Of a DNA stretch of 64,000 nucleotides, positions 8,616 to 33,394 are shown in pieces. Made by a program: the position numbers and the translations under genes. Numbering within the stretch: the stretch's first letter is position 1; each line of letters starts with the position of its first letter. The notes beneath the pieces are model-generated. The model searched no databases. It was not told where the DNA came from and saw only the letters and a list, made by a program, of their open reading frames with translations. Source of the stretch: an uncultured Alphaproteobacteria bacterium (GTDB lineage Bacteria; Pseudomonadota; Alphaproteobacteria; JAJTHO01; G963706365); NCBI GenBank assembly GCA_963706365.1, contig OY970150.1, positions 293,364 through 357,363 on the forward strand, given 5' to 3'.

Positions 8616-8690
8616 TGAGGTGGCCCCCAAAAATTAGACAGTGGAAAGTACTCTAGCGTCCTCTGGCAGAATGCTAGTAAGGAGCAGAAT

Positions 8691-13997: not shown

Positions 13998-14011
13998 GCG
14001 CTCAACCCTCT

Positions 14012-15664: not shown

Positions 15665-15869
15665 TTTGACCTCCCTTAAAGCTGGCAATATACGCGTGAA
15701 TATCCTCTGCCCGCCATGCGGTAATATTGGGGCTTAATTTAATAGGTTCAGGAAAAGTACCAGCTTTTACCATATTCCAAAAAGTCGTTTTGCCGTATGG
15801 AATATATCGCTGTACAACGGGTAGGCGTACAAAACCTGTTTTAGGTAGGTTAGTTAAACTATCATTCAT
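15657..15869 (-). CDS. AlpA-family regulator/excisionase
   Basis: 'GFVRLPVV...GKTTFWNMVKAGTFPEPIKLSPNITAWRAEDI'. Confidence 0.92.
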   Translation of the reverse strand: MNDSLTNLPKTGFVRLPVVQRYIPYGKTTFWNMVKAGTFPEPIKLSPNITAWRAEDIHAYIASFKGGQND

Positions 15870-15930
15870 TTGAATTCCTTTGTGTTCGGTTAAACTCAAA
15901 GGATTTTTAGACGCGATAAAATAGCTTGTG

Positions 15931-15962
15931 ACCGAATTCGGTTATGCCAAACCGAATTCGGT
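15931..15962. promoter_or_regulatory. Tandem palindromic operator-like sites ACCGAATTCGGT x2 upstream of alpA
   Basis: Perfect 12-bp palindromes at 15931-15942 and 15951-15962 (20-bp period). Confidence 0.65.
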
Positions 15963-16749: not shown

Positions 16750-16764
16750 AAAATTCTCTTATTT

Positions 16765-17943
16765 TTATTGCTTGGCCGTATCTAAATAATTTGCCCCATC
16801 CTGCATCATTACAGCGCGCTGATCCAAAAATTGCGCCCTGTCGTATGCTTCACCAAGGGAGTGTGGTTTTTTGTGTGCCAGTTGAAGGTCTGCTACTTCA
16901 TGTGGATAGCCTAACTTCTCTTGTAGCGCTGTTAGGGCTAAGGCTCTAAAGCCGTGGCCTGTCATGGTGCCTTTATAACCCATGCGATATAGGGCAGTGA
17001 GTAGCGTATTCTCACATATGGGCTGCTTTGGTTTGTTCGGACTTGCAAACAACCATTCACGATAGCCGTTTATTACTTGCAGCTGTTCTATAACTTTTAA
17101 AGCCTGTTTTGAAAGGGGAACAGTATGTTTACGGCGCATTTTGCTATACTCAACAGGAACAATCCAAACTTTCTTCTCAAAATCAAATTGGTCTATTTTT
17201 GCATGGCGTAATTCGTGCGTGCGAACAAATGTTAAAAACATCAATTCAAAAGCTAATCTTGTTATTTTAGATAATTGCGCATTTTGTAAATCGTTTAGCA
17301 GTTTTGATATTTGCTGCGGGTCAATGGCTGCGTGATGCTTTACGGGTCTAGTTTTTAAAGCACCTTTAAAGGTTGTGGTAATATCGTAATCTGCACGACC
17401 TGTTTGAATAGCGTATCTAAAAATTTGCCCACAATATTGATTGCAACGCTTTGAAACCTCTAAAGCGCCTCTAGCTTCTATTCTACGCATAACTTCTAAC
17501 AAGATAGGCGAAGTAACATCTCTAATGGGCAGCTTGCCAATTTCAGGGAATATATCGGCTTCTAACCGTGTTAGAATAGTTTTAGCATGTTTAAGTTGCC
17601 ACTCCGGCTGCTTATGTAAATGCCATTCCCTAGCAATGGCTTCAAAAGTGTTTGCACTATTCAATCGCTTTTCACGTTTTTCTTCTTTTTTGGCAGCAGA
17701 AGGGTCAATGTCTTTATCGAGTAATTTTCTGGCGGCAAGACGTTGTTCACGGGCTTCCTTTAATGAGGTTTGGGGGTATGTTCCAAAGGCTAATAGTTTT
17801 TCTACCCCCAAGTGCCTGTATTTATACCGCCAATATTTAGAGCCCTTAGGCGTTATTTGCAGGTAAAGCCCTGCGCCATCGCTTAATTTATAAGGCTTTT
17901 CTCTGGTTTCGGCTGTTTTGCATTGTCTATCATTTAGCTTCAT
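16765..17943 (-). CDS. P4-like tyrosine integrase
   Basis: 'KPYKLSDGAGLYL...GSKYWRYKYR' arm-binding domain, 'TFVRTHE', 'HGFR', 'QLAH', 'AYDR'. Confidence 0.95.
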   Translation of the reverse strand: MKLNDRQCKTAETREKPYKLSDGAGLYLQITPKGSKYWRYKYRHLGVEKLLAFGTYPQTSLKEAREQRLAARKLLDKDIDPSAAKKEEKREKRLNSANTFEAIAREWHLHKQPEWQLKHAKTILTRLEADIFPEIGKLPIRDVTSPILLEVMRRIEARGALEVSKRCNQYCGQIFRYAIQTGRADYDITTTFKGALKTRPVKHHAAIDPQQISKLLNDLQNAQLSKITRLAFELMFLTFVRTHELRHAKIDQFDFEKKVWIVPVEYSKMRRKHTVPLSKQALKVIEQLQVINGYREWLFASPNKPKQPICENTLLTALYRMGYKGTMTGHGFRALALTALQEKLGYPHEVADLQLAHKKPHSLGEAYDRAQFLDQRAVMMQDGANYLDTAKQ

Positions 17944-17992
17944 GGGGGTATCAAAATTGTTTGTTTTCAACAGTACCCCCATAAGTACCCCC
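17941..17992. repeat. Probable arm-type integrase binding repeats (TACCCCC)
   Basis: AGTACCCCC twice in direct orientation plus an inverted GGGGGTA at the integrase start. Confidence 0.55.
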
Positions 17993-18104: not shown

Positions 18105-18153
18105 ATGGCTCCCCGGGAGGGATTCGAACCCCCGACCAATTGATTAACAGTCA
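18105..18153 (-). repeat. att site: 49-bp duplicate of the tRNA-Asn 3' part
   Basis: Identical to 33319-33367 (ATGGCTCCCCGGGAGGGATTCGAACCCCCGACCAATTGATTAACAGTCA). Confidence 0.96.
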
Positions 18154-18270
18154 CATGGTCTTTGTATTTACTAAGTCTTACATTTCTATATAAAGCTATA
18201 CATAACAAGGGTTTTAGGGCTATAAAGCACCTTGTATGATTTATCAAAATATACCTAATTTCACCTATAT

Positions 18271-18302
18271 TGCGGCACGAATGCGGCACCAGTGCGGCAC
18301 CA
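18271..18302 (+). repeat. TGCGGCAC x3 with 11-bp period (arm-type sites); two more at 33253 and 33264
   Basis: ATGCGGCACCAGTGCGGCACCA occurs at 18281-18302 and 33252-33273. Confidence 0.8.
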
Positions 18303-18333
18303 GATTCTTTTTAGAAAGCGCAGGAATACAGGC

Positions 18334-19485
18334 ATGAGCAATACAATTAACTTTACCAAAGCGGCACTAAAAGCATTGCCATTGCCTAACAGCGGGCGTG
18401 ACTATTATAAGGATACCAAGGAAAAGGGTTTGTCGCTGGCGATTACCAAGGCGGGTACGATTACCTTTTTTGTGCGAAAACGGGTGCAGGGAAAAGACGA
18501 GCGCATTACCATTGGCACGTTTCCTGAATTTAGTATTGAGAATGCCCGTAAGCAGGCGATGAAAGTTAAGGCTGATATTGCCACGGGTATTGACCCTAGC
18601 TTTGAGAAAAAACGCCTGAAAGCTGATATTTTATTTGGCGATATGTTTGCGGAATATTTGGAGAAATACGCCAAGCTGCACAAGCAATCGTGGCAGTATG
18701 ATGAACGCATTATCACACGGCTGGCGGGGCATTTATTTAAACGCAAGGCATCGCAAATCACCCGAACAGATTGGATGCAACTGCATGAGGAAGTGGGCAA
18801 GAATAATGGCGAATATAGTGCAAACCGTCTGATAACCCTTGTTTGTGTGGTGTATAATAAGGCGATTGATTGGGATTGGGCGGGCACGAACCCTGCTAGC
18901 CGTATTAAGAAGTTTAAAGAGAAAAGCCGCGAACGATTTTTGCGAAAGGATGAAGTGGCGGGCTTTTTTCAGGCGTTGGCGTTAGAAGAAAACGAGACGG
19001 CACGGGATTATATTATGGCCTCGCTTTTAACGGGCGCGCGGAAAACCAATGTGCTGGAAATGCGGTGGGATCAAGTTAATTTTAACCTGAAAGAATGGCG
19101 TATTCCCAAAACCAAGAATGGTGAAATGCAAACGGTGCCGTTATCGGATACGTTGATTGCCTTGCTGGAAAAACGGCGGGAAATTTCTGAAAGTGAATTT
19201 GTGTTTGAAGGTACAGGCGCAACGGGGCATTTGGCCGACCCCCGCAAGGCTTGGGGGCGTGTGTTGAAACGAGCGGGCATTGAAGATTTGCGCTTGCATG
19301 ATTTGCGGCGCACATTAGGCAGCTGGATGGCGGCCAATGGCGTGACGACGGCCATTATTGGCAAAACGTTGGCGCACAAAAGTGTGCAGGCGACCAAGGT
19401 TTATGAACGGTTGGATATTGACCCGGTGCGGGAATCTATGATGGTGGCGGAGAAGGCTTTGTTTGAGGTTGGGGGTGTGAATTGA
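18334..19485 (+). CDS. Tyrosine recombinase/integrase
   Basis: Arm-binding N-terminus, 'TGARKTN', 'KTKNG', 'HDLRR', 'LAHKS', 'VYER'. Confidence 0.95.
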   Translation: MSNTINFTKAALKALPLPNSGRDYYKDTKEKGLSLAITKAGTITFFVRKRVQGKDERITIGTFPEFSIENARKQAMKVKADIATGIDPSFEKKRLKADILFGDMFAEYLEKYAKLHKQSWQYDERIITRLAGHLFKRKASQITRTDWMQLHEEVGKNNGEYSANRLITLVCVVYNKAIDWDWAGTNPASRIKKFKEKSRERFLRKDEVAGFFQALALEENETARDYIMASLLTGARKTNVLEMRWDQVNFNLKEWRIPKTKNGEMQTVPLSDTLIALLEKRREISESEFVFEGTGATGHLADPRKAWGRVLKRAGIEDLRLHDLRRTLGSWMAANGVTTAIIGKTLAHKSVQATKVYERLDIDPVRESMMVAEKALFEVGGVN

Positions 19486-19517
19486 CGGGATGAACTTGGC
19501 ATCCTATTAAAGAAGTC

Positions 19518-20330
19518 ATGAAGTATGAAATTGCACAAATTATAACTACTTTTGTAGGATTTGGCGTTCTAGTGTATCAGGTGCACAAAGGTTTTGAGAA
19601 TAGCTTTGCGCTAAAGAACCGAGAAATAAAGGATGCTTACCATAAGGAGCTACACGAGAAAATTGAGATAGCGATAAGCAACCTTCATGAAACCACAAGT
19701 ACTATGTCATCTTGCCTTCTAAGCATCAAAATAGCTTTTGGTAATTATGCAGACATGCAAGCTTCAGGGATTGCTAATCCTATTATGTCAGTTGATAGCT
19801 CAGAACAAGTTAGATTGAAAAGTGCAGAAATGGGCGAAGCCATTTTTCAAGTTTTAGGAACTATTGAAAAATACGAAATAGTGGAGCCAAAACTGAATAT
19901 TTTTAAAATCGCATTCTCGTCATATCATCATGACTATAGTAAAATATTTCATGGTAGATTATACAGAAATTTGCTGCCTGTATTGCCATTCTCTTTAAGT
20001 GATGGCACTTGCAAACCATTCGTCATGCCGAACGAAGAACGTTTAAAAACTTTAATAAAAGATTTAGACGCTGCATATGAAAGTATTTCTAACATTAAGA
20101 TGGTTATCTACGATTTACGCATTGAAATACAGAACTTGCTCCTTTCTGAATTATTTGACAGAAAATTAGAGCTTAGAAAACCGATTGACCCCAAAATTAA
20201 AGTGATTTCAAGTCAAAGTTATGACGAGTTAAATCAGTATTTTGAGAAAGAAACGAATTATGGAAAAAGCAATTCAGATGCGGTGAATAGAGTTTTAGAA
20301 GATTTTATTAAACAAGATACGAACCTTTAA
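19518..20330 (+). CDS. Hypothetical protein with N-terminal TM helix (AT-rich cargo)
   Basis: 270-aa ORF with hydrophobic residues ~5-23; no motif recognised. Confidence 0.75.
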   Translation: MKYEIAQIITTFVGFGVLVYQVHKGFENSFALKNREIKDAYHKELHEKIEIAISNLHETTSTMSSCLLSIKIAFGNYADMQASGIANPIMSVDSSEQVRLKSAEMGEAIFQVLGTIEKYEIVEPKLNIFKIAFSSYHHDYSKIFHGRLYRNLLPVLPFSLSDGTCKPFVMPNEERLKTLIKDLDAAYESISNIKMVIYDLRIEIQNLLLSELFDRKLELRKPIDPKIKVISSQSYDELNQYFEKETNYGKSNSDAVNRVLEDFIKQDTNL

Positions 20331-20380
20331 TAGTAAAAGTAACTATTAAATAAAAACATATTATCCTTTAATAATAAATC

Positions 20381-21562
20381 ATGCTATTAAAGGATATGCG
20401 CAAACAACCACCGCCTAAATTAACAGGCACCTACCACAGCACCACTGCCGCTGGCGAAACGGTAAAAGCGTTTGTACCAAAACCGTTACCCATTGAACCT
20501 GCACTGGATTTAACTGCCTTGCAACCCCGCCTTGAAAAAGCAACGGCGGCATTGGGGCGGTTGGATGGGGTGACGGCATCGTTGCCGAGTGTGGAATTGC
20601 TGATTTATTTTTATATTCGCAAAGAGGCATTGTTATCGTCACAAATTGAAGGCACGCAATCATCGTTTGATGATTTGTTGTTGTATGAAAATAACGCGGT
20701 GCCGTCTGTGCCCATTGATGATGTAGAGGAGGTTTCACATTATGTGGCGGCGTTGAATCATGGCTTGCAGCGGATGCAGGAAGGGTTTCCGTTATCGTTG
20801 CGGTTGATACGAGAAATGCACGGTATTTTATTGCGGGGTGGGCGTGGCAGAACCAAAGCCCCTGGCGAATTTCGCACAAGCCAAAACTGGATTGGCGGCA
20901 CCCGACCAAGTAATGCTATATTTGTGCCGCCTCCGCCAAATAAGGTGATGGACTGCCTATCGAACCTAGAGCATTATCTACATAACGAGCAAGAACCCGC
21001 CCTGCTAAAAGCCGCCATCGCCCATGTGCAATTTGAAACCATTCACCCGTTTTTAGATGGCAACGGGCGTATGGGGCGGTTGTTGATTACGTTGTTATTG
21101 TGTGAACAAGGCTTGCTAAAATCGCCTGTGCTGTATTTAAGTTTGTTTTTAAAACAACATCGCCAAGCCTATTATGAAATGCTGGATGGGGTGCGCTATC
21201 AAGGCGGCAATGGAGAGGGATGGCTTAGGTGGCTAGATTTCTTCTTAGAAGGCGTAGAAAAAACCGCGACCGACGCCGCCCAAAAAGCCACCGCTATTCA
21301 GGCACTCTTTAAAGAAGATGTTGCCAAAATTGAAACGTTGAAACGGGCAAAAACATCGGCAGTGAGATTGTTTGAATATCTACAACGGCGGGCATTATGC
21401 CAAATTCCCAATGCGGCAGCTGATTTAGGTTTGACGCAACCAACAGTCACCGCCGCCCTGCAACATTTGGTAGCACTAGGGATTGCCCAAGAGGCATCGG
21501 GGAAACAACGAGATCGAGTTTTTGTTTATGGGGGGTATGTGGGGTTGTTGGGTGATGGTTAG
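20381..21562 (+). CDS. Fic-family protein
   Basis: Canonical HPFLDGNGRMGR, N-terminal SSQIEG auto-inhibitory motif, C-terminal HTH-like region. Confidence 0.95.
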   Translation: MLLKDMRKQPPPKLTGTYHSTTAAGETVKAFVPKPLPIEPALDLTALQPRLEKATAALGRLDGVTASLPSVELLIYFYIRKEALLSSQIEGTQSSFDDLLLYENNAVPSVPIDDVEEVSHYVAALNHGLQRMQEGFPLSLRLIREMHGILLRGGRGRTKAPGEFRTSQNWIGGTRPSNAIFVPPPPNKVMDCLSNLEHYLHNEQEPALLKAAIAHVQFETIHPFLDGNGRMGRLLITLLLCEQGLLKSPVLYLSLFLKQHRQAYYEMLDGVRYQGGNGEGWLRWLDFFLEGVEKTATDAAQKATAIQALFKEDVAKIETLKRAKTSAVRLFEYLQRRALCQIPNAAADLGLTQPTVTAALQHLVALGIAQEASGKQRDRVFVYGGYVGLLGDG

Positions 21563-22020
21563 AGATGCCGCTTCATTACAAAAGCAACTTTGCCGTATTC
21601 CTCATTTTCTATACCGTGTAAATCATGTGAGATATCAAACGATTTCCCTAACTTACTTGACCATACACCGTTATCTAGCTGCTTGGCGGCATGTGTTGGT
21701 GCTGAACCTAGTGAAAAAATGGCTATTTTTTCAAAATCTTGTTCTAAATCTTCACTGGCACAAAGTTTGTAGCCTAATTTTTCAAAGGCAGCTTGGAAAC
21801 ATGGCAGTGTCTCAACTCTTAAAGATATAGGCCAATAGGCAAAACCATTAATATCAGGCCACCACCACCGTGTTTCATCACCGCCTGCATAGGCAATACA
21901 GTTATAAGATTCATCTTGCGGGCTGGTAATCCTTAAAATACTACGATCAATTTTAGGGTATTTTTGCACCACTAAATTTTTAACACGCTCTATTTGTTCT
22001 GATTGTACCATTCTATCCAT
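21559..22020 (-). CDS. Putative papain-like Cys/His hydrolase (DUF7689-like)
   Basis: 'TSP..ESYNCIAYA', 'WWWP', 'THAAKQ', 'WSSKLG', 'YG'. Confidence 0.65.
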   Translation of the reverse strand: MDRMVQSEQIERVKNLVVQKYPKIDRSILRITSPQDESYNCIAYAGGDETRWWWPDINGFAYWPISLRVETLPCFQAAFEKLGYKLCASEDLEQDFEKIAIFSLGSAPTHAAKQLDNGVWSSKLGKSFDISHDLHGIENEEYGKVAFVMKRHL

Positions 22021-22391
22021 GCGTTACACATAGCCATTATATTCCCGCGATCTTTATCTTGTACAGGATTTTCTTTCGTAATAACGGCTAGTGCCATAAA
22101 TAGTAAATCTGGTTGGTTTTCGATTTCTTCAACAATTAACTTTACGACAGGTTGCCCCATATCAACAATGTCTTTAAAGTATTGGCTTTTCATCATAGCC
22201 GTTGGATTAGAGCTGTAAAGTGTTTCTAAACGCCAATTTTTTACAGCTTCTTGAAAAACGTCAACATAATCTTTTTGTGAAACAGGGTAGTGCACAGCGT
22301 TGGGAGCACTGGAAGAGACAGGTCTGATACTTTTGTAATAGCCTGTTGGTTCTGAGAAATTAATACTGCTCTTTTTCAAGTTGTTCTGCAT
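21990..22391 (-). CDS. Conserved hypothetical helical protein, possible antitoxin/inhibitor
   Basis: 'WRLETLYSS', 'IVDMGQPVVKLI', 'ALAVITKENPV', 'AWIEW'; overlaps both neighbours. Confidence 0.7.
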   Translation of the reverse strand: MQNNLKKSSINFSEPTGYYKSIRPVSSSAPNAVHYPVSQKDYVDVFQEAVKNWRLETLYSSNPTAMMKSQYFKDIVDMGQPVVKLIVEEIENQPDLLFMALAVITKENPVQDKDRGNIMAMCNAWIEWYNQNK

Positions 22392-22707
22392 CTTCTATAA
22401 CCTTTCCTAACCATTTATGTATTGATTTTGCAATATCTAAACGCAGAAAAATATCTGCTTCCATTTCACGTACAATACTGTGGCGTGATGTTACCTGCAC
22501 TAAGTCGCTTAACCTGCCATCATCTGAGACTTCATGAATTTCTCGCTTGGGAATGGCGCCCCTTTCACTGTATAATGAAATATGAACATGACCATTTGGC
22601 GTAACACCACCTACGGCACCATCAGCGCGTAACGAGCGAAATGAAGTGCTTTTGATATAATCAAAAATGACGTTCTGTTTTATCTCTAGCTCATCTTTTT
22701 CTTGCAT
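22360..22707 (-). CDS. Hypothetical protein, DUF3467-like
   Basis: 'FRSLRADGAVGGVTPNGHVHISLYSER', 'REMEADIFLRLDIAKSIHKWL'. Confidence 0.6.
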   Translation of the reverse strand: MQEKDELEIKQNVIFDYIKSTSFRSLRADGAVGGVTPNGHVHISLYSERGAIPKREIHEVSDDGRLSDLVQVTSRHSIVREMEADIFLRLDIAKSIHKWLGKVIEDAEQLEKEQY

Positions 22708-22859
22708 AATCTATATCGCTGTTTTTATTCTACTATAGTTTTTTTGTATTAAACTGCAATATAATAAACATAGCGTAAATATTACATATTTTAAACCGTT
22801 GTAGAAAAAATTTCCCCCAACCCCTCCCCATTTACCAAACTCTATGAGAGTATTTGTAG

Positions 22860-23123
22860 ATGGACACAACTTTACCAACAGAAAATTTGCGGGATGCGTT
22901 GTTGGCGCATTCACCAGCACCGAAAAGCACAACCCTCACCCCCGAAACCACCTTACTAAGCCGCCCTGAAACCGCGGCAATGATAGGCGTAAAGCCTAAT
23001 ACATTAGCGGTATGGGAAAGTAACAAGCGTTATAATCTGCCTGTTACCAAAGTGGGTAGGCTGGCAAAATATCGCCTTTCGGATATTCAGGCGTTCCTAG
23101 AAAACAATGGGGAGGGGGCATAA
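22860..23123 (+). CDS. HTH_17/excisionase-like DNA-binding protein
   Basis: 'LLSRPETAAMIGVKPNTLAVW...KVGRLAKYRLSDIQAFL'. Confidence 0.9.
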   Translation: MDTTLPTENLRDALLAHSPAPKSTTLTPETTLLSRPETAAMIGVKPNTLAVWESNKRYNLPVTKVGRLAKYRLSDIQAFLENNGEGA

Positions 23124-23124
23124 G

Positions 23125-23469
23125 ATGCACAATAGACTTCCTTTTAAAGAAGTGGCCGAACGGGCGACTTCTTATCACACCGCTATTTTAAACCGTTTAT
23201 TACCCGATGGTAAACTGATTGGTGTGGAATTTATGGCACGCAACCCGAACCGTTGCGATGGCAAAACAGGCAGTTTCTCGTTTAACATTAGAACAGGAAA
23301 ATGGGCAGACTTTGCCACCGATGACAAGGGTGGTGATATTATTTCGCTTTATGCTTATCTTGTTGGTTGTTCACAAAAGGATGCTTTATTTGACGTGGCG
23401 AAAATGATTGGCTTTGAGATTCCTGCCTATCGAGAATCATTTAATAAAGGAGGGCATCACTATGCGTAG
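23125..23469 (+). CDS. Stand-alone primase N-terminal (zinc-finger-like) domain protein
   Basis: 'NPNRCDGKTGSFSFNIRTGKWADFATDDKGGDIISLYAYL', homologous to the N-terminus of the element 1 primase. Confidence 0.75.
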   Translation: MHNRLPFKEVAERATSYHTAILNRLLPDGKLIGVEFMARNPNRCDGKTGSFSFNIRTGKWADFATDDKGGDIISLYAYLVGCSQKDALFDVAKMIGFEIPAYRESFNKGGHHYA

Positions 23470-25984
23470 TAACACCCTCGAGAAAATTCAATTTAACGAT
23501 AACATTACAGCCCCTATTACACAAGAAGAACAGCAGTTTGTAGCCGATAAAACTACTGGGAAAACAATAGATAAAGCGGATAAAGAACCCGTCTTTCCTG
23601 TGCCGGATACAGCCTCAAGTATTGATAGCTTTGCTGTAAAAAAATGGGGTGGTAAGCCTGATGTGCTTTATCCTTATCATAATGCTGATGGTGCGGTGAT
23701 GCTGTATATTGCCCGTTGGCACAATGATGGCGATAAGATCATTCGGCCATTGAGCTATTGTAATCTTGGCAATGGCCAGTTTGGCTGGGCTATAAAAGGT
23801 ATGGGCGGTGTAGACAATCGCCCGTTATATCGCCTGCCGGAGATTCTTAACAACCCTGATAAACCCGTATTAATTTGTGAGGGCGAGAAAACGGCGGATT
23901 CTGCGCAACGGCTATTCCCTGATTATATTTGTACTACCCCAATGCAGGGTGCGCAGTCTGCTAATAAAACAGACTGGCAGCCATTACAGGGGCGCAAGAT
24001 TGTTATTGCCCCGGATTGCGATGATGCGGGGATGCAATTTGCTGATACGGTTTATGATCTGGTTACAGCGGAAAGCGTGCAAATGCTGGCCACCTGGAAG
24101 CTGGGTAAAGGTTGTTTTATTAATGGCGACTGGTGCGAGCATACCAATATTGCCGAAAAATATGATTTGGCCGATGCGGAAGAAGATGGCTGGACAGCCG
24201 AGCGTATTAACCGCACCCCCGATTTGCTGGAAGCTTATATCACAACCGAAGCCTTAACAGCAATTACCAAAAACCACGGGGAGCAGTATAGAGTGAATGG
24301 CAGTGGGGTGTATCAATGGTGCGTTGTAGAAAGGGCGAAGGTAAAACAGCCCGCTATTAACGACTGGATTTGGCAATGTTCTTACCTAATTGTAAAGTGC
24401 CGGTGCCGCGATGGAAACAGTGGCAATTGGGGTTATTTAGTTGAACTAATAGATGCCGATGGTAAACGAAAAGAATGCACCTTACCGGCGGATATAATCA
24501 ACGATCCCAAACCGTATATTAAAACCTTGCTGAACTTAGGTTTGAAAATGAAGCCCTATGCCCATGCAACTATTGCCAGCTATATTCAATCCACCACCAC
24601 GAAAAAGCGGGCGACTGATGTTTATAAAGTGGGTTGGCATACCATTGATAACAAGCAGGTTTATGTATTTCCGGGGAAAGTTTATGGAAGCCCGAAAAAC
24701 CCTGTATTGCTCGATATTAAAGGCGGAATACAGCCGGAACCATTTACCGTGAAAGGCAACCTGCAACAGTGGAATGAAACCATCGGCAAATATCTGCCAC
24801 AAAACCATCGTTTAATTGTTGTTTCCTGCATAGGGCTTGCCGCCACTATTTTAGGGCTACAGGAAGAAGCGGAAAACTTTGGTATTCATTTTAAAGGCGG
24901 TTCCAGTATGGGCAAAACCACCGCCTTGCATGTGGCGAAAAGTGTTATGGGCAACAAAATAAACCCGTGGCGCACGACGGATAATGCGGCGGAAGGTTTA
25001 GCTGCGCTGCACCATCACAATTTATTAATGCTAGATGAGCTAAGCCAAGTGGAAGGCCGCGCCGCCGATCAAATGATTTATATGCTGGGTAATGGGCAAG
25101 GCAAAGCGAGAGCCAACCGTAGCGGCGAAGCACGGGGTATTATAGACTTCAAAACCCTATTCTTAAGCACCGGTGAAATTTCTTTATCGGAAAAAATAGC
25201 CGAATGCGGTAAACGCACTAAGGCCGGGCAAGCGGTGCGGATGCTGGAAATTGAAGCGGATGCCGAAACGGGGCACGGTATTTTTAACAGTATACATGAC
25301 CAACCATCAGCAGCGCAGTTATCGGATTACCTAAAGCAACAAGCCACGAAACATAGTGGCGCGGTGCTGGATCATTTTTTGACTAAGCTGTTAAAAAACC
25401 CTGATAATGCATTGTTGTCTATTAAAGCAAAACAGCGGGAATGGCTAGACGATCACTGCGAACCGGATGCCAATGGACAAGTAAAACGTGTTGCTAGAAA
25501 CATGGCGTTGATTGCTGCCACGGGTGAAATAGCCATTGAATGGGGTTGTTTTGCGGCATTGCAACAAGATGCTGCCATGCGTGCCATAGCCGTTCTATTC
25601 TATGACTGGTACAATAGTAATAAAGCCGATGATCCGCAGGAAGTTACTGCTACTATTAAAGCCCTACGACAGTTTTTAGAACAACATGGTAGTAGTAGAT
25701 TTGAAACTTGGGGTGGTGATAGTGAGGAGCCGCACAAAACAATTAATCGCGCAGGTTTTAGAAAGCCCGTAGGTGGTGCTTATCAATACTATTTGTTCAA
25801 AGGCACTTTTAGAACAGAAATTTGCCAAGGCGGTGATCCGGTAGTTATTGCAAGAACACTAGCGGATAAGGGTATTTTTATAAAAGATAAGAAACACAAA
25901 ACCGCCCCATCAACAACTATTCCCAACTATGGCACAGATAGAATGTACCATATCAATCCTGATTTTATGAAAGGTAGTGATTAA
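23462..25984 (+). CDS. Toprim primase-DUF927 helicase fusion
   Basis: 'RPLYRL', 'ICEGEKTAD', 'PDCDDAG', P-loop 'GGSSMGKTT', 'WRTTDNAAEG', 'LDEL', 'LSTGE'; RBS AAGGAGG upstream of ATG 23462. Confidence 0.9.
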   Translation: MRSNTLEKIQFNDNITAPITQEEQQFVADKTTGKTIDKADKEPVFPVPDTASSIDSFAVKKWGGKPDVLYPYHNADGAVMLYIARWHNDGDKIIRPLSYCNLGNGQFGWAIKGMGGVDNRPLYRLPEILNNPDKPVLICEGEKTADSAQRLFPDYICTTPMQGAQSANKTDWQPLQGRKIVIAPDCDDAGMQFADTVYDLVTAESVQMLATWKLGKGCFINGDWCEHTNIAEKYDLADAEEDGWTAERINRTPDLLEAYITTEALTAITKNHGEQYRVNGSGVYQWCVVERAKVKQPAINDWIWQCSYLIVKCRCRDGNSGNWGYLVELIDADGKRKECTLPADIINDPKPYIKTLLNLGLKMKPYAHATIASYIQSTTTKKRATDVYKVGWHTIDNKQVYVFPGKVYGSPKNPVLLDIKGGIQPEPFTVKGNLQQWNETIGKYLPQNHRLIVVSCIGLAATILGLQEEAENFGIHFKGGSSMGKTTALHVAKSVMGNKINPWRTTDNAAEGLAALHHHNLLMLDELSQVEGRAADQMIYMLGNGQGKARANRSGEARGIIDFKTLFLSTGEISLSEKIAECGKRTKAGQAVRMLEIEADAETGHGIFNSIHDQPSAAQLSDYLKQQATKHSGAVLDHFLTKLLKNPDNALLSIKAKQREWLDDHCEPDANGQVKRVARNMALIAATGEIAIEWGCFAALQQDAAMRAIAVLFYDWYNSNKADDPQEVTATIKALRQFLEQHGSSRFETWGGDSEEPHKTINRAGFRKPVGGAYQYYLFKGTFRTEICQGGDPVVIARTLADKGIFIKDKKHKTAPSTTIPNYGTDRMYHINPDFMKGSD

Positions 25985-25986
25985 CA

Positions 25987-26161
25987 GGTGTTCGCGGTGT
26001 TTCGGGTGTTTGGACAAGATAATTATCAAGCAATACAATATGATAATGCCAAACACTTCAAAACACCCTGCCATTACCCAACGTGTTGCAGGTGTTTGTA
26101 TGCAACAAATTGAAAAACAATAATTAATTAAAATCCAAACACCTAAAACACCCCAAACACC
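25987..26161. promoter_or_regulatory. Putative replication origin: inverted iteron arrays
   Basis: GGTGTT at 25987, 25996, 26005 and AACACC at 26138, 26147, 26156 (9-bp period), with extra copies between and an AT-rich core. Confidence 0.7.
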
Positions 26162-26175
26162 GGAAATATAACGAT

Positions 26176-26715
26176 ATGAGTAAGAAAACAAAAACGAATC
26201 ATACCCTAAATGTTTTTAACAAAGACCTCAGCAATGGTATTTTAAACAGCACGCTTACAGCAGCATTGCTTTCAAAAGACTATATGGGCAAATACCATGA
26301 CCCTGGCGTATTTCTCGACCCTATTGCTAAAACCGCCAACAAAGCCAGCGATGGTGATTTAACCGACATGGAAGCCATGCTGGCTAGCCAAGCTATCGCG
26401 TTAGATACCCTATTTTCAAGCCTAGTGCATCGCTCTTGCTCAAACATGGGGCAGTATTTTGATGCTGCCAACGAATATATGAAACTAGCACTAAAGGCAC
26501 AAACGCAATGTAAAACTACTATTGAGAGTCTAGCTAATATTAAGCAATCAAAAATAGTGGTGCAAAATAACATTGCCCAATATCAACAGGTAAATAACGA
26601 TGGTCAAATAACCGCACAACAGCCCAATGCCATCGTCCATAACCCTGCTGAACCTGTAAAAATGGACAATGCGACAAACGAACTATTGGATCATGAAAAA
26701 GTCATTGAAACGTAA
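26176..26715 (+). CDS. Conserved hypothetical protein of integrative elements
   Basis: 'EAMLASQAIALD...LALKAQTQCKTTIESL'; overlaps the next gene. Confidence 0.75.
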   Translation: MSKKTKTNHTLNVFNKDLSNGILNSTLTAALLSKDYMGKYHDPGVFLDPIAKTANKASDGDLTDMEAMLASQAIALDTLFSSLVHRSCSNMGQYFDAANEYMKLALKAQTQCKTTIESLANIKQSKIVVQNNIAQYQQVNNDGQITAQQPNAIVHNPAEPVKMDNATNELLDHEKVIET

Positions 26716-26938
26716 AAGAAAAAAGGATTTTTGCACCCGTAATAAAAACGGAGGGACTCCTGAGCGTAGAAAGCAACAATCAGAACGTATTAAGCATTGG
26801 AAGCCTTGGAAAAGTAGCACGGGGGCGACCACTGAACAGGGTAAAGAAACCTGTAAGATGAATGCATTTAAACATGGGTTTTACGGGGCGGAGATTAAGG
26901 CAATTCAGAAAATTATTGCTGAAATTGAAAAGGGTTAG
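26693..26938 (+). CDS. HGGxSTG-related small basic protein
   Basis: 'WKPWKSSTGATTEQGKETCKMNAFKHG' resembles the STGPxTxEG...NAxKHG motif. Confidence 0.7.
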   Translation: MKKSLKRKRKKDFCTRNKNGGTPERRKQQSERIKHWKPWKSSTGATTEQGKETCKMNAFKHGFYGAEIKAIQKIIAEIEKG

Positions 26939-27079
26939 CGTAGGTACTTTATAGCCATTTTAACTATACGGGTGTTCGAGGTGCGGTGTATTACGATGGC
27001 TAGAGGTTTTTGAATTGGTTAACTGGTTAGTTAAACCACGCTAGCTATTAGAAGTCTTAACCGTTATGGATGAAGCTAT

Positions 27080-30000
27080 ATGACTGTTCTAAAATCTAAT
27101 GCGCCACTGTTTTCTGACATTGTTACAGAAACAGTATTGGAAACACCATTACAAAAACTATTAAACCATTTTCGTAACCATGCCCAAACGGAACGGGAAA
27201 AGGGTACATATTTTGAGGAGCTTATCCTGAAATATTTACAAACGGAACCGCAGTATAAAAACCTTTATCAATCGGTGCAAACCTATGCTCATTGGGCAAA
27301 AGCACAGGGAAAGTCGCAGCAAGATGATGGCATTGATTTGGTTGCTATTACAACAGGTGGCGAAACTCATGCAATACAGTGCAAGCTATATGATCAAGGC
27401 TACACATTACAAAAACGCGACATTGATAGCTTTTTCACAGCCAGCGGCAAAGCCCCGTTTACTAATCGTATCATTGTTAGCACCACAAATAAATGGTCGC
27501 CACACGCGGAAAACGCCTTAATTGACCAAACCCCGCCTGTTACCAAAATTGATTTATTTGCATTGGAAGAAAGTGTTATTGACTGGGCGCAATATCAACC
27601 TGATACCACTGTAAAAACCAAAGCGAAATACCCTCTTAAATGCCATCAAAAACGTGCTTTGAATGCCATAGATAAAGGTTTTGAAACGGCCAATCGTGGC
27701 AAAATGATTATGGCTTGTGGCACGGGGAAAACCTTTACTAGTCTCAAGATTGCTGAACAGCAGGCGGGTGTAGGCAAGAATGTACTATTTTTAGTGCCTA
27801 GCCTTTCCCTATTATCTCAAACCTTAACCGAATGGACACAGCAAAGCGACATCCCTCTAAACAGCTTTGCCGTGTGTTCTGATAATGATGTAGGGAAAAA
27901 GAAAAGTGGGAATGATGACGCCGTGCAAACGCTTATTCATGAATTATCATACCCTGCCACCACCAATGCAGAAAGCCTGTATAAAGCTACACAGAACCGC
28001 AGCCAGCCTAATGCCATGACCGTGGTATTTTCAACCTATCATTCCCTTGCCACTATCCACGAAGCGCAAAAATTAGGGCTTGCTGATTTTGACCTTATCA
28101 TTTGCGATGAAGCCCACCGCACCACGGGCGCAACCTTTAGTGGGGATGACGAAAGCAGCTTTGTGCGTATTCACGATAACGATTATGTTGCAGGGCATAA
28201 ACGGTTGTATATGACCGCAACCCCCCGCATTTATGGCAACGATGCCAAAATAAAAGCCGAGGTGGAAAGCATTGAGTTGTGTTCCATGGACGACCCCGCC
28301 AAATTTGGTAAAACCCTGTTCACCATCAACTTTGCTGAGGCGGTGGAAAAAGGCTTGCTAGTGGATTACAAGGTGCTGGTGTTGGCGGTGGATGAAATGC
28401 ACATCAACCAACGTTTGCAAAAATTATTATCCGATGAAAATAATTCCTTAAAAGTAGATGACGCCGCCCGCATTGTGGGGTGTTGGAAAGCATTGTCTAT
28501 GCAGGGTATTGAGGGCGCAACCCCCATGCAACGGGCGGTGGCGTTTTGTGACAAGATAGAAATCAAAACCCGTGGCAACGTAAGTAGCAAGCAAATTGCC
28601 GCCATGTTCCAAACAGTAGTAGAAGTCTATCAAGAAGCGGAGAACGATAGCACCCAATTAACCTGCGAAGTACAACACGTTGACGGCAGCATGAACGCCA
28701 GCCAAAAGGAAGAAAAACTAGCATGGTTAAGGGCTGAAACCGCTGAGAACACATGCCGTATTGTTAGTAATGTAAAATGTTTATCGGAAGGTGTAGACGT
28801 GCCTACCCTTGATGCAGTGTTATTTCTGACCCCTAAAACTTCACAGGTGGATGTGGTGCAATCAGTGGGGCGCATCATGCGCAATGCCCCGAATAAGGAA
28901 TTGGGGTATGTGATATTACCCGTGGTTATTCCCCACGGCATGGAAGCCCACGACGCCCTTGATAACAACCAGAATTATAAGGTGGTATGGGACGTGCTAA
29001 ATGCCTTGCGTTCCCACGATGAACGCCTGAATGCCAAAATTAACCAAGCCGAATTGGAAGGCAAAAGCATTGCCAATATTGAGGTTATTCCCGTTACCAA
29101 CACCCTGAACCCGAAAATTAAACGCCCATCTGATAAAGACAGCACCCTAAACAGTGCTAGAACAGGCTATGGCATTGGCGAGAAAAACCCCGATGCCCCC
29201 ACCCAGCAATTAGAAATAGAATTTGAAATTGGCGATATTGAACGGGCATTATATGCCAAAATCGTGAAAAAATGCGGGCAGCGGTTATATTGGGAAGATT
29301 GGGCAAAAGACATTGCCAACATCGCCCAAACCCACATTAACCGCATCACCACCATTGTGCAAAACCCTGAAAACACGGTTGAAGCCGCCGCCTTTAACGG
29401 CTTTGCCGGTGAACTGCGAGACGACCTAAACCCCAGCATTTCAGACGATGAAGTGATTGAAATGTTGGCACAGCACCTCATCACCAAACCCGTGTTTGAT
29501 GCGCTGTTTCAACACGATAATTTTGCCGCCAACAACCCCGTTTCCCAAGCCATGCAAGATGTGCTGGATGTGTTGCAAACCCACAATTTGCATAAAGAAG
29601 CCGACACCCTAGAACAATTCTATGAAAGCGTGCGCCGCCGTGTGGCGGGCATTAACACCGCCGAAGGCAAGCAAAAGATTATTGTGCAGTTATACGATAA
29701 ATTTTTCCGTAATGCCTTCCCCCGCCTTACCGAACGCCTTGGCATTGTTTACACCCCTGTTGAGGTGGTGGATTTCATTATTCATTCGGTAAACGACGTA
29801 TTGCAAAATGAATTTGGTGAAACATTAGGCAGCCAAGGCGTGCATATTATTGACCCCTTCACCGGCACCGGCACGTTTATCACCCGCATGTTGCAAAGCG
29901 GCCTCATCACCCCCGAACAACTGCCCCATAAATACGACCACGAAATTCATGCCAACGAAATTGTGTTGCTGGCCTATTACATCGCCGCCATTAATATTGA

Positions 30001-31969
30001 ATCTACTTACCACGCTTTAATGGGAGGGGATTACAAACCCTTCCAAGGCATCTGTTTAACCGATACGTTCCAGTTGTATGAAAAAGACGACATGGTAAGT
30101 GAGCTACTGGTGGATAATTCCGAACGCCGCATGCGCCAAAAGAATTTGGATATTCAGGTGATAATGGGGAATCCGCCCTATTCCGCTGGGCAACAAAGTG
30201 CCAACGATAATGCGGCCAATGTAGATTACCCGTTGCTGAATAAAAGCATTGCGGAGAGTTATGCACGGCATACCAAGGCCACGAATAAGAATGCGCTGTA
30301 TGATAGTTATATACGTGCCATACGTTGGGGCAGCGACCAGTTAAAAAAGGGTGGCGTGTTGGCATATGTTAGTGGCGGCGCATGGGTGGAACGTGCCTTT
30401 GCAACAGGTATTCGCAAATGTTTAAGGGAAGAATTCACCAACCTTTATGTGTTCCATTTGCGGGGCGATGTGCGTAAAAATATGTTAAGTAAGGGCGCAG
30501 CAAAAGAAGGGCAAAACATTTTTGACAGCGGCAGCATGACAGGGATTGCCATTTCAGTATTTGTCAAAAACCCTAACGCTAAAAGCCACGGCAATATTTA
30601 CTTTCACGACATTGGCGATGATTTAACCACCCAACAAAAGAAAGATAAAATTACCGAATTTAAAAGCATTAACGGCATTACAGACGCCAATGCATGGCAA
30701 ACCATCACCCCCGACAAGCATAACGATTGGTTAAACCAGCGAGATAACAGTTTTGAAGCGTTTATCAAAATGGGGGATAAGAAGGATAAACAGGCGGTGG
30801 TGTTGTTTGAGAATTATTCCAATGGCTTAAAAACCCAGCGTGATGCGTGGTGTTACAACTTTTCAAATAAAGGCTTATCTGAAAATATTGGTAGTATGAT
30901 TGATTTTTATAATCAGCAAATTGATGCAGATAAGATTGATAATGATACTACTAAGATTAGTTGGACAAGAGCTTTAAGAAATGATTTTGTTAAAGGAAAA
31001 AAAATTGAACATAATGGTGTTAAAATATCAGCATGTTATAGGCCATTTACAAAACAATGGCTCTATTATGACCGCAGAGTAAACGAAATGGTTTACCAAA
31101 TGCCCCAAATTTTCCCCAGCGACAGTGTGGAAAACAAGGTTATTTGCGTTTCTGGTATTGGCTCAAGAAGTGGATTTTCCAGTTTGATTGTTGATAAAAT
31201 ACCAGATCTTGGCATTATAGAATCAAGCCAATGTTTCCCCCTATACCTCTACACCAAACAATCAAACCAAACAAACAGCCAAGCCGACCTGCTGGCCGAA
31301 ACCCCTGCCCACACCACAAACGGCTATACCCGCACCGATGCCATCACCACCACAGGGTTGCAGCATTTTCAGCAGGGCTATAACGACGATACCATCACCA
31401 AGGAAGATATTTTCTACTACACCTACGGCATCCTCCACAGCCCGCAATACCGCGAAAAATACGCCGATAACCTCTCCAAAGAACTGCCCCGCATTCCCCT
31501 TATCAAGGGCATTGAAAATTTTTGGCAATTTGTAGAAGCAGGGCGCAAACTAGCCAACCTGCACCTAAATTACGAGGTCGCCAAAAAATTCCCCGCCACC
31601 ATCGTGGGCAACCCCGAAACCGATGCCGATTATTATGTCACTAAAATGAAGTTTGCAGGGAGTGGCAAAAACAAAGACAAAACCACCATCATTTACAACG
31701 CGAATATAACAATAACCAATATACCCGAACGGGCATTTGACTACATCGTCAACGGCAAACCCGCCCTAGAATGGGTAATGGAACGCCAAGGGCTAAAAAC
31801 CGACAAAGCCAGCGGCATCGTCAATGACGCCAACCGCTATGCAATAGAAACCGTTGGCAATGCCAAATACTCGCTAGAATTACTATTGCGGATAATTATC
31901 GTGAGTTTGGAGACGCTGGATATTGTGGATAGCTTGCCTAAGGGAGAATACTTAAATGAAGCCAACTAA
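27080..31969 (+). CDS. Type ISP restriction-modification enzyme (LlaBIII/LlaGI-like)
   Basis: Mrr-like nuclease 'GIDLVA...AIQCK', SF2 helicase 'MACGTGKT'/'DEAH', N6-adenine MTase 'DPFTGTG'/'GNPPY', C-terminal TRD 'YRPFTKQW', 'ELPRIP'. Confidence 0.95.
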   Translation: MTVLKSNAPLFSDIVTETVLETPLQKLLNHFRNHAQTEREKGTYFEELILKYLQTEPQYKNLYQSVQTYAHWAKAQGKSQQDDGIDLVAITTGGETHAIQCKLYDQGYTLQKRDIDSFFTASGKAPFTNRIIVSTTNKWSPHAENALIDQTPPVTKIDLFALEESVIDWAQYQPDTTVKTKAKYPLKCHQKRALNAIDKGFETANRGKMIMACGTGKTFTSLKIAEQQAGVGKNVLFLVPSLSLLSQTLTEWTQQSDIPLNSFAVCSDNDVGKKKSGNDDAVQTLIHELSYPATTNAESLYKATQNRSQPNAMTVVFSTYHSLATIHEAQKLGLADFDLIICDEAHRTTGATFSGDDESSFVRIHDNDYVAGHKRLYMTATPRIYGNDAKIKAEVESIELCSMDDPAKFGKTLFTINFAEAVEKGLLVDYKVLVLAVDEMHINQRLQKLLSDENNSLKVDDAARIVGCWKALSMQGIEGATPMQRAVAFCDKIEIKTRGNVSSKQIAAMFQTVVEVYQEAENDSTQLTCEVQHVDGSMNASQKEEKLAWLRAETAENTCRIVSNVKCLSEGVDVPTLDAVLFLTPKTSQVDVVQSVGRIMRNAPNKELGYVILPVVIPHGMEAHDALDNNQNYKVVWDVLNALRSHDERLNAKINQAELEGKSIANIEVIPVTNTLNPKIKRPSDKDSTLNSARTGYGIGEKNPDAPTQQLEIEFEIGDIERALYAKIVKKCGQRLYWEDWAKDIANIAQTHINRITTIVQNPENTVEAAAFNGFAGELRDDLNPSISDDEVIEMLAQHLITKPVFDALFQHDNFAANNPVSQAMQDVLDVLQTHNLHKEADTLEQFYESVRRRVAGINTAEGKQKIIVQLYDKFFRNAFPRLTERLGIVYTPVEVVDFIIHSVNDVLQNEFGETLGSQGVHIIDPFTGTGTFITRMLQSGLITPEQLPHKYDHEIHANEIVLLAYYIAAINIESTYHALMGGDYKPFQGICLTDTFQLYEKDDMVSELLVDNSERRMRQKNLDIQVIMGNPPYSAGQQSANDNAANVDYPLLNKSIAESYARHTKATNKNALYDSYIRAIRWGSDQLKKGGVLAYVSGGAWVERAFATGIRKCLREEFTNLYVFHLRGDVRKNMLSKGAAKEGQNIFDSGSMTGIAISVFVKNPNAKSHGNIYFHDIGDDLTTQQKKDKITEFKSINGITDANAWQTITPDKHNDWLNQRDNSFEAFIKMGDKKDKQAVVLFENYSNGLKTQRDAWCYNFSNKGLSENIGSMIDFYNQQIDADKIDNDTTKISWTRALRNDFVKGKKIEHNGVKISACYRPFTKQWLYYDRRVNEMVYQMPQIFPSDSVENKVICVSGIGSRSGFSSLIVDKIPDLGIIESSQCFPLYLYTKQSNQTNSQADLLAETPAHTTNGYTRTDAITTTGLQHFQQGYNDDTITKEDIFYYTYGILHSPQYREKYADNLSKELPRIPLIKGIENFWQFVEAGRKLANLHLNYEVAKKFPATIVGNPETDADYYVTKMKFAGSGKNKDKTTIIYNANITITNIPERAFDYIVNGKPALEWVMERQGLKTDKASGIVNDANRYAIETVGNAKYSLELLLRIIIVSLETLDIVDSLPKGEYLNEAN

Positions 31970-32894
31970 TGTTTTTATTTCGTACAGCCATAAAGATGCT
32001 GACATATGCGATAAAGTTCATACGCATCTTGAATGCTTAGTAAAAGCAAACCTTGTTAAGATTTATTACGATGAGCATATGTTGGGTGGTGATGAAATAG
32101 ACCCGACTATTAAAGCATATATTGATAATTCATCTTTAGCATTATTTATGATTAGTGCTAACTTTATTGATTCAAAATACTGTTGGAAAATTGAAAGAGA
32201 ATTAATATTAGAGCGCAAAAAGCAAGGTAGGATGCATGTTGTTGGTGTGTTAATCGAGGATTGCCAGTGGCACTTGCCGGAGCTCGGTTTAAAACAATTT
32301 AAAATGCTACCTAAAGATGCTAAAGCAATTACTGGGCGTGACTGGCACAATCAATCAGAGGCTTTATCTGATATGGCTGATGGAATATTAAAAGTCTGTA
32401 GGCAATTGGATAATAAGTTGGAAGATACTAAAGAATTTGTGAATGAATTTGATCAGTGTCAAAGCGACGATAATCCATCCCCTTTTCAAAAATGTATAGA
32501 TCAATTCTTGTTAGAATCAGCAGAGCGCAAAATTTTAGCTGGCGCATTAAAGGATAAATTTCCAGACATAAAAAGCATGGCCTTTGAGGCAGCAAACTAT
32601 GCATTATTATCATTATCTGCTGATCTAAAGCAACGAGAAGAAATTCATACCGCTAATCCTTTAGATACTTTGTATAAAAATATTTATTATACATTAGGGG
32701 AGCAGCTGATTGATATTGTAGAGTATAGGGTGATACCCTCCACCGTAAGGGTACTGAATAACAACTCAACTTTGCTTGAAACCGCCTTTCTTTATATTAG
32801 GAATGAAAAAATAACTAGGTTTTGCTGCAATAAATTGCAACGCGATATTCTGGAGCAGTCTTTAGACCTACTGATTAAAAGAATAACCAGTTAG
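31956..32894 (+). CDS. TIR-domain protein with unknown C-terminal domain
   Basis: 'VFISYSHKD', 'ISANFIDSKYCWKIE', 'LPKDAKAI'. Confidence 0.88.
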   Translation: MKPTNVFISYSHKDADICDKVHTHLECLVKANLVKIYYDEHMLGGDEIDPTIKAYIDNSSLALFMISANFIDSKYCWKIERELILERKKQGRMHVVGVLIEDCQWHLPELGLKQFKMLPKDAKAITGRDWHNQSEALSDMADGILKVCRQLDNKLEDTKEFVNEFDQCQSDDNPSPFQKCIDQFLLESAERKILAGALKDKFPDIKSMAFEAANYALLSLSADLKQREEIHTANPLDTLYKNIYYTLGEQLIDIVEYRVIPSTVRVLNNNSTLLETAFLYIRNEKITRFCCNKLQRDILEQSLDLLIKRITS

Positions 32895-33136
32895 CTTTTA
32901 TTATATTTCTTAGCAAAGTGCTGATCAGCATATGCGATACAATCTTTTTGTATCAGATTGTCCATAGATTCTAGGTTCTGCCTATCTCTTTCTTCTAGCT
33001 GATCTTCGGATAATATTGCAATATTGACAATATCTTCAAGTAAAGACTCTATCTTCAAGATATCTATTGCAGGAACTACATTTTTCAGTTCAGACAGATG
33101 TATTTTTATTACTGTTAAAATGTCCTCGACTTGCAT
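32891..33136 (-). CDS. Small acidic hypothetical protein
   Basis: Open frame from ATG 33136 (MQVEDILTV...); its stop overlaps the TIR gene stop. Confidence 0.45.
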   Translation of the reverse strand: MQVEDILTVIKIHLSELKNVVPAIDILKIESLLEDIVNIAILSEDQLEERDRQNLESMDNLIQKDCIAYADQHFAKKYNKS

Positions 33137-33319
33137 GGGAATAAACCGCTTTCTAATTTTTCCCAATATTAAAAAACAATGCTTAAAAAAGTGATAAAGC
33201 AAAACCAATCACAATAGCGGTACTGTATTATTATAAAGAATACTGACTCAAATGCGGCACCAGTGCGGCACCAAGAATTTTTAAGTTGAACCATAATCAA
33301 CGTAAGTCATTGAAAAATA

Positions 33320-33394
33320 TGGCTCCCCGGGAGGGATTCGAACCCCCGACCAATTGATTAACAGTCAACTGCTCTACCACTGAGCTACCAGGGA
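33320..33394 (-). tRNA. tRNA-Asn(GTT), integration target
   Basis: TCCCTGGTAGCTCAGTGGTAGAGCAGTTGACTGTTAATCAATTGGTCGGGGGTTCGAATCCCTCCCGGGGAGCCA. Confidence 0.97.

Follow-up and report, generated by a model that had tools for sequence, protein, structure and literature searches.

Organization of the tRNA-Asn island

The window analysed here, a 64,000-nucleotide stretch of contig OY970150.1 from an uncultured alphaproteobacterium, contains an island integrated into a tRNA-Asn gene (Table 1). Its features support the identification of the island as a capsid-less, relaxase-less integrative element that belongs to a larger family. The family marker is orf179, an unannotated gene downstream of the replication module, which overlaps with a second small gene, orf80, and carries a conserved DNA signal at the junction of the two.

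The att repeats that bound the island are identical over exactly 49 bp, in agreement with the sequence-only reading, an earlier annotation of the window made without database searches. The full repeat has no third copy in the single-contig 1.87-Mb genome. The tRNA gene spans nucleotides 33320–33394 of the minus strand, and the repeat covers it from the anticodon loop to the 3′ end. An Rfam scan identified the tRNA as the only match. The TGCGGCAC(CA) repeats, which the sequence-only reading missed, are located inside both ends of the element. The short end repeats have an 11-bp period; three lie towards the integrase and two towards the tRNA. The left repeats are likely integrase arm-type sites, as indicated by their position 118–140 bp inside the att core. 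The unit TGCGGCACCA occurs 13 times in the genome, including four times in the element. After excision, the short repeats would flank the core as in an attP. The integrase passes the cut-offs of the Pfam families Phage_integrase and Arm-DNA-bind_3 and contains the R-H-R-H-Y catalytic set, which confirms its earlier assignment. In a search for an empty site, none of 41 genomes belonged to the same genus or family, and the von Willebrand factor A gene that flanks the element was not found in the 13 other genomes of the order.

The replication module begins with a helix-turn-helix (HTH) gene. Its previous designation as an excisionase agrees with a match to a PHROG excisionase family, but the match is weak (E 1e-6), and the HTH_17 score of 21.8 bits is below the cut-off of 27. 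The following 120-residue open reading frame (ORF) is 48–59% identical to the N-termini of two fused Toprim primases from the same genome. The primase is split in the same way in five relatives (L013, L015, L016, L094, and L097), which shows that the split, already recognised in the sequence-only reading, is natural and not a sequencing break. The iterons comprise eight GGTGTT units in 175 bp, arranged in inverted groups, and form the densest cluster of this unit in the genome (0.12 expected). Relatives L013, L094, and L097 keep the GGTGTT unit after the DUF927 gene, and L014, L015, L016, and L073 have other iteron units in a similar inverted layout.

The 15 ORFs of the element were scanned against four libraries, and no capsid, terminase, relaxase, or type IV secretion system (T4SS) families were found, as the sequence-only reading had anticipated. 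A block of cargo genes separates the integrase from the xis-like gene. All cargo ORFs together occupy 61% of the element, and those with defence-library matches (SoFic, Type ISP, TIR) occupy 46%, which is less than the "more than half" previously attributed to defence-like cargo.

Table 1 Coordinates of the island features in the window
Feature	Position	Strand	Evidence or remark
Whole island	18105..33367		15,263 bp; tRNA-Asn-integrated; bounded by 49-bp repeats
Distal att copy	18105..18153	.	3′ half of tRNA-Asn, exact 49-bp repeat
Three TGCGGCAC(CA) repeats, 11-bp period	18271..18302	+	Likely integrase arm-type sites
Tyrosine integrase with arm-binding domain, reads inward	18292..19485	+	Pfam PF00589, PF13356; PHROG 1
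Cargo, 270 aa, unknown family, GC 0.34	19518..20330	+	No significant family match
SoFic-like Fic protein, intact HPFxxGNGR-type motif	20381..21562	+	PADLOC SoFic E 1.9e-119; Pfam Fic_N, Fic
Three overlapping cargo genes: 115 aa, 133 aa, DUF7689 (153 aa)	21559..22707	−	Pfam PF24738, last gene only
Excisionase/AlpA-like HTH	22860..23123	+	PHROG 66 E 1e-6; HTH_17 below cut-off
Stand-alone primase N-terminal domain	23107..23469	+	PHROG match and same-genome comparison
Toprim-DUF927 primase/helicase (Cch-related)	23408..25984	+	PF06048 E 6e-62; SCCmec Cch1 below cut-off
Inverted iteron array around AT-rich core	25987..26161	.	Predicted origin
orf179, unannotated helical-hairpin protein	26176..26715	+	Family marker; predicted homo-oligomer
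Nucleotide-level conserved signal AACRAACTATTRGA(G), 15 nt	26677..26691	+	orf179/orf80 junction
orf80, small basic WxPW-STG-NA protein	26696..26938	+	Overlaps orf179 in +1 frame
Type ISP restriction-modification enzyme, 1629 aa, one open frame	27080..31969	+	Pfam Mrr_cat_2, ResIII, ISP_coupler, Type_ISP_C; PADLOC E 0
TIR-domain protein, ThsB-like	31956..32894	+	Family-library matches; no ThsA in element
Cargo, 105 aa, unknown family	32891..33208	−	Weak PADLOC match alone
Two TGCGGCACCA repeats	33253..33273	+	Likely arm-type sites
tRNA-Asn(GTT) holding proximal att copy 33319–33367	33319..33394	−	Sole tRNA-Asn in genome

The orf179–orf80 pair defines a widespread family

A profile built from seven close matches of orf179 was used to search representatives clustered at 50% identity (E 0.001) and identified 5,125 proteins. 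None of 146 aligned members has a convincing match in Pfam or PHROG, matches in the ESM Atlas were to unnamed clusters only, and neither orf179 nor orf80 matches a toxin-antitoxin or regulator family. The family has three matches in 72,556 plasmid records, and is present in eight of 401 genomes of the host's class, with two of these matches being weak. No description of the pair was found in the literature; this is a weak negative, since unnamed proteins cannot be found by word search and the pair may be listed in supplements to the papers on HE-PICIs, VEIMEs, tycheposons, and SatelliteFinder.

Loci of the family were collected from named genomes (38 loci), further genomes (6), viral contigs (26), and metagenomes (59); they are not independent, and include many near-identical Stenotrophomonas copies. 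The orf80 gene, which encodes 89 residues if its first start at position 26669 is used, adjoins orf179 in 111 of the 121 loci with 800 nucleotides available downstream (38/44 from genomes, 23/24 viral, and 50/53 from metagenomes), and is in the +1 frame in 105 of the 111. A profile search detected an integrase within 14 of 21 wide loci from genomes, 6 of 19 loci from viral contigs, and 4 of 10 from metagenomes; in two extended Stenotrophomonas genomes the integrase is located just past the 10-kb flank of the pair. In six of the 27 loci with a tRNA or tmRNA, a repeat encloses the pair and delimits elements of 5.9 to 13.0 kb, with three of the repeats only 14 bp long. Terminal repeats indicating circular contigs were not found among 129 loci, many of which are not whole contigs.

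The pair is the constant part of the loci, while the upstream replication gene changes among DUF927, DUF3987, AAA_25, Prim-Pol/D5, DUF3631, DnaB, O-like initiators, and plasmid RepA. Since the DUF927 relatives L013, L015, L016, and L017 lack the pair, the replication module and the pair assort freely. The pair is found in alpha-, beta-, and gammaproteobacterial islands and in two small plasmids, with hosts including Nitrosomonas, Massilia, Stenotrophomonas, and Steroidobacter, and plasmids of Polaromonas. The alphaproteobacterial family envisaged by the sequence-only reading was too narrow, and several replication modules other than DUF927 occur.

The Polaromonas plasmids (L031 and L032, 7.2 and 11.2 kb) carry the pair together with RepA, ParA, and a resolvase, and pW9NP1 is typed as non-mobilisable. 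A resolvase accompanies the pair also in L075, a 4.6-kb high-coverage contig. In a Sphingomonas island (L069:10852–12690), the pair is directly followed by reverse-transcriptase cargo, possibly a defence reverse transcriptase. Other unannotated families without PHROG matches occupy the late slot in L013:5790–7159, L094:9573–10112, and L046:2411–3058. They include a protein starting with MGGxGSGR and a longer protein with the NAxxHG motif of orf80. The longer family, which shares the STGP-NAxKHG motif of orf80, has no match to small terminases (TerS) and no similarity to orf179.

The gene junction contains a signal conserved as DNA

The signal at position 26677, overlooked by the sequence-only reading, is conserved as DNA and not as protein. 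Homologues of orf179 have an apparent NELLE motif over the signal. In 43 orf179-family genes less than 70% identical to each other, the codon of Asn168 is AAC in 39/39, that of Leu170 is CTA in 34/39, and that of Leu171 is TTR (TTG or TTA) in 39/39. By contrast, Leu69 is encoded by CTA in 4/43, and the conserved columns upstream use all synonymous codons. This codon use demonstrates a constraint at the DNA level. The bias holds in loci with a GC content of up to 69%. The core pattern of the signal is located inside the gene in 29 of 42 loci, with a single occurrence elsewhere in 635 kb; when one mismatch is allowed, 93 of 121 loci contain it. The short core occurs 17 times in the AT-richer host genome and is therefore not unique alone. 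In 20 of 41 loci, a GCGCG-GGAAA box (strict pattern) is positioned 13–16 nucleotides upstream of the signal, with A-tracts in between. A scan for sigma-70 promoters gave matches at chance level.

In orf179 homologues, the C-terminal tail corresponds to the shadow frame of orf80; this tail is absent from the element's copy. Twenty-nine of 86 longer orf80 matches also fit the orf179 profile. An obligatory programmed frameshift was rejected as a general explanation: most of the longer forms are singletons, and in at least nine loci a stop codon interrupts the +1 frame immediately past the signal. A mimic of a phage cos or pac site was also considered and rejected. Ten of the 15 matches of the signal in the viral collection are the pair itself, and the remaining five (four distinct) lie in AT-rich surroundings where inspection by eye showed no packaging gene; BLASTN against phages yielded a single match, attributable to chance.

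Predicted structures of orf179 and orf80

The AlphaFold2 model of orf179 is composed of three short helices, a long hairpin (residues 63–131, pLDDT above 90), and a low-confidence Gln/Asn-rich tail. A four-copy model of residues 12–145 scored 0.58, versus 0.06 for the best control, and its runs agree in at least 76% of contacts with a pLDDT of at least 65. Of 30 solved pairs, 20 scored at least this high, as did 1 of 23 single chains, in a calibration that used two copies only and is roughly valid for four. The protein is predicted to self-associate head-to-tail. The best contacts between the copies are parallel and connect one face of the hairpin to the opposite face of the next copy (residues 72 with 109, 104 with 102, and 118 with 117), a modelled geometry that may be read as a ring or a filament. 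Small terminases form rings of parallel hairpins, as do other proteins. The model of orf80 has two helices around an extended WxPW-STG loop.

Fold searches with orf179 identified generic hairpins only; the Z scores, up to 10.5 for proteins such as PspA and ESCRT-III, do not exceed those of generic matches. Orf80 had no match in a fold search. No homology of the pair to TerS was found: Pfam, PHROG, NCBIfam, and PDB sequence searches and fold searches identified nothing specific.

Some relatives of the element carry virion genes beside the pair

In a Stenotrophomonas tRNA-Met island, integrase, AlpA-like, antirepressor, HNH, and initiator-like genes are followed by three consecutive genes of P22-type ejection proteins (PHROG 598, 2534, and 26400), located directly upstream of the pair. 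The largest is similar to ejection proteins from Xfas53 and Sf6 along short segments. No head or terminase match was found among the scanned ORFs of this island, the far boundary of which was not located. In L039, a tail chaperone and a tape measure gene are directly upstream of the pair, and in L029 a tape-measure-like gene and a baseplate hub gene are downstream. The ejection and tape-measure genes beside the pair run in the same direction as the pair. Ejection and tape-measure proteins would serve only DNA that travels in virions.

Two further pair-bearing islands, L033 and L034, are apparently inserted inside prophages, both shortly after a phrog_874-like gene, and are possibly helper-embedded satellites. 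L033 encodes a Type ISP enzyme 54% identical to that of the element.

Comparison with known satellites and mobile islands

By architecture, the element resembles phage-inducible chromosomal islands (PICIs), with two or three of the five components by which they are defined in the available description (PMC10085698). Under the SatelliteFinder definition, it has an integrase (PF00589 over cut-off) and a primase-replicase (DUF927 and Toprim), and the capsid morphogenesis component is missing. Gram-negative PICIs, and especially the three-of-five-component EcCIMP1, are described with tRNA-type integration, integrase, AlpA/Xis-like, and primase genes, an origin downstream of the primase, a size of 6–15 kb, and defence cargo (PMC11773190, PMC10085698), all of which resemble the element. 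EcCIMP1, in which the same account finds no recognisable capsid or terminase genes and places DNA-transfer-like genes at the late position, is a PICI shown to be transferred by a helper (PMC11773190). Unlike PICIs, the element has no recognisable TerS, capsid-morphogenesis, or Rpp gene; that slot is occupied by the unrelated pair and the DNA signal, and a cargo block is inserted between int and xis.

[quoted passage not shown] However, they are described beside fis in Vibrionaceae and with DUF3987 or DUF5906 primases, whereas the element is in tRNA-Asn and has a DUF927 primase and a conserved late pair. Relatives of the element do use DUF3987 and DUF5906. Because it has only two or three of the five PICI components and differs from PICMIs in site and primase, we assign the element to neither group. 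It also lacks matches to psu-delta-sid or to capsid, portal, and large terminase genes, which distinguish P4-like satellites and capsid-forming PICIs. A relaxase, as expected for integrative and mobilizable elements (IMEs), was found neither in the element nor among 139 scanned neighbours of its relatives.

The architecture alone fits that of tycheposons. Both these and integrative mobile elements encapsidated in virions (VEIMEs) are reported to have tRNA-targeting integrases, excisionases, swappable replication modules, and no conjugation genes (10.1101/2020.12.28.424599; PMC9618062), and VEIMEs include alphaproteobacterial, capsid-less elements (PMC9618062). In contrast to the element, the satellite types described there carry a major capsid protein or a recognisable TerS. 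The packaging module of the phage-inducible island-like elements (PLEs), composed of Gpi/GpsA/GpsB and a pac mimic, also consists of small genes without homologues that are located downstream of the origin near a short conserved site, and redirects packaging according to the available account (PMC11417361). The likeness is one of layout, and, unlike the pair, PLE is restricted to Vibrio cholerae and ICP1. Islands without transfer genes are also moved by jumbo phages, in the case of tmRNA islands (PMC12595487).

Proposed mobilisation by helper phages

We propose that the element is a PICI-like satellite that is likely excised, replicated, and packaged in helper-phage particles, and that the pair and the signal are a predicted packaging-redirection module; we give this reading a probability of about 0.5. 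Mobilisation by phages, which we hold at even odds, is the most likely route of its spread. The sequence-only reading had suggested a satellite or an IME; we favour the satellite because relatives carry phage ejection, tape-measure, and baseplate genes beside the pair and the scanned neighbours have no relaxase, a preference that comes from the relatives and not from the element's own copy. The pair occupies the late slot after the primase and origin, where Gram-negative PICIs are described to keep their packaging genes (PMC10111431, PMC11773190).

In the proposed sequence of events, a helper phage would induce the Xis-like protein, and the integrase would recombine the pair of 49-bp cores, giving an attP with 2+3 arm sites on its flanks. 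The DUF927 helicase would then load at the inverted iterons, and the split primase would start replication. A ring-like oligomer of orf179 and the basic orf80 may bind the 15-nucleotide signal as a pac-like site and recruit the large terminase of the helper. The Type ISP, TIR, and Fic cargo would pay for the carriage by blocking other phages. The role of the pair as a packaging hook is less certain than mobilisation by phages. Tentatively, orf179, orf80, and the signal may form a new packaging-hijack module (a terminase-recruiting ring, a DNA-binding partner, and a pac site) that is unrelated to known TerS and functions on replicons of any kind. It would then be the mark of a very large class of proteobacterial phage satellites that has gone unrecognised, to which small "non-mobilisable" plasmids would also belong.

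For most small genomic islands that lack relaxase and capsid genes, the means of movement is an open question, and elements with three core components only escape current satellite finders. The pair is a specific marker (5,125 clusters, no Pfam family, none in the phage collection) and provides a precisely defined cis site for mutation, so that mobility can be studied in harmless, culturable hosts such as Sphingomonas. If the module does redirect packaging, it would represent a new mechanism, and the elements with the pair a large family that carries defence genes.

Several observations weigh against this proposal. Virion genes are beside the pair in few lineages only and could be independent captures. 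A search of 50,697 phage records with orf179 gave no match, a counterpart in a helper is not known, and the signal was not found in phage packaging regions. In PHROG, none of the 146 members of the orf179 family and one of the 50 members of the orf80 family (E 0.016) matched TerS. The pair is present on the two small Polaromonas plasmids, one with a MOBV relaxase. The host carries a relaxase-bearing element, coupling proteins, VirB4, and scattered genes resembling those of gene transfer agents (GTAs), which are other possible routes. The signal includes the ribosome-binding site of orf80, with GGAG at its end before the start codon, and may instead be a translational or operator element. In the element itself, the upstream GCGCG-GGAAA box is absent, orf80 has a Gly at the Trp position conserved in at least 90% of its family, and orf179 has a Ser at a Pro position that is 99% conserved.

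The overlap of the two genes, their translational coupling, and the Shine-Dalgarno sequence at the end of the signal are also consistent with a tycheposon-like gene shuttle that excises and replicates but moves passively in vesicles, GTAs, or by generalised transduction. The pair would then serve maintenance or regulation, for instance as a toxin-antitoxin or an autoregulated switch, and the signal would be an operator or translation-control site. The plasmids on which the pair is beside ParA and a resolvase, the GTA-like cluster of the host, and the report of cargo tycheposons in vesicles (10.1101/2020.12.28.424599) fit this possibility. We consider it the less probable explanation, as no toxin-antitoxin or regulator family matches either gene and the codirectional ejection and tape-measure genes of the relatives are left unexplained.

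The relaxase, coupling proteins, and VirB4 encoded elsewhere in the host genome could serve a relaxase-less conjugative hitcher of the iOriT or MGI type, and relaxase-less elements are reported to be common (10.64898/2026.01.13.699239). The signal would then function like an oriT, and the two proteins would be relaxosome accessory factors of a helper integrative and conjugative element or plasmid. This is unlikely: BLASTN of the element against its own genome gave no match at the relaxase region, the signal is inside a coding overlap, and the relatives carry virion genes and no conjugation genes.

The deviations of orf80, orf179, and the upstream box from the consensus may mean that the element's copy is in decay, and they qualify its earlier description as intact-looking, which holds in that all its ORFs are open. 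The element could be a stranded member of the family that still excises but persists as a defence cassette with a decayed late module. The neighbouring island broken by insertion sequences (ISs) and the lack of a complete prophage in the inspected capsid and terminase regions agree with this. However, the core ORFs are all open, the att cores are identical, and the arm repeats and iterons are kept. The assembly also has other apparent indel errors (a capsid gene in two frames), and single changes may be errors. We consider stranding an improbable explanation.

Cargo genes and genomic surroundings

The Fic protein falls below the NCBIfam SoFic cut-off. The three-gene overlapping operon at 21559–22707, which ends in DUF7689, is a candidate uncharacterised defence or toxin-antitoxin system; the name DUF7689 was not found in the literature.

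Directly beyond the distal att, nucleotides 11893–17982 (minus strand) of the window form a second, degraded island, the far end of which was not found. It contains a P4-type integrase, an AlpA-like gene, a fused Toprim (DUF7146) primase, and a DUF3987-like gene interrupted by IS3-type copies, and is probably an older tenant of the same tRNA-Asn site. A third, att-bounded island of 10.3 kb is at tRNA-Met (L018, C1:195197–205545 of the host genome). Its integrase is 45% and its Xis 53% identical to those of the element, and it has a fused Toprim primase and a DUF3987-like gene. Its late slot contains a different small gene and no pair. Cross-talk between the element and this island is possible.

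Elsewhere in the host genome (C1), there are a GTA-like cluster with the capsid gene in two frames (629000–638000), a lone large terminase (791758–793107), and an element with relaxase, MobC, and coupling-protein genes and defence-like cargo (1667800–1698500). ARAGORN calls a permuted tmRNA in the genome; permuted tmRNA and the GTA-like cluster are alphaproteobacterial traits, and by these the host probably belongs to the Alphaproteobacteria. To the left of the islands, among IS elements, inspection by eye identified an aconitase-like fragment of distinct composition (window 6990–8630, minus strand).

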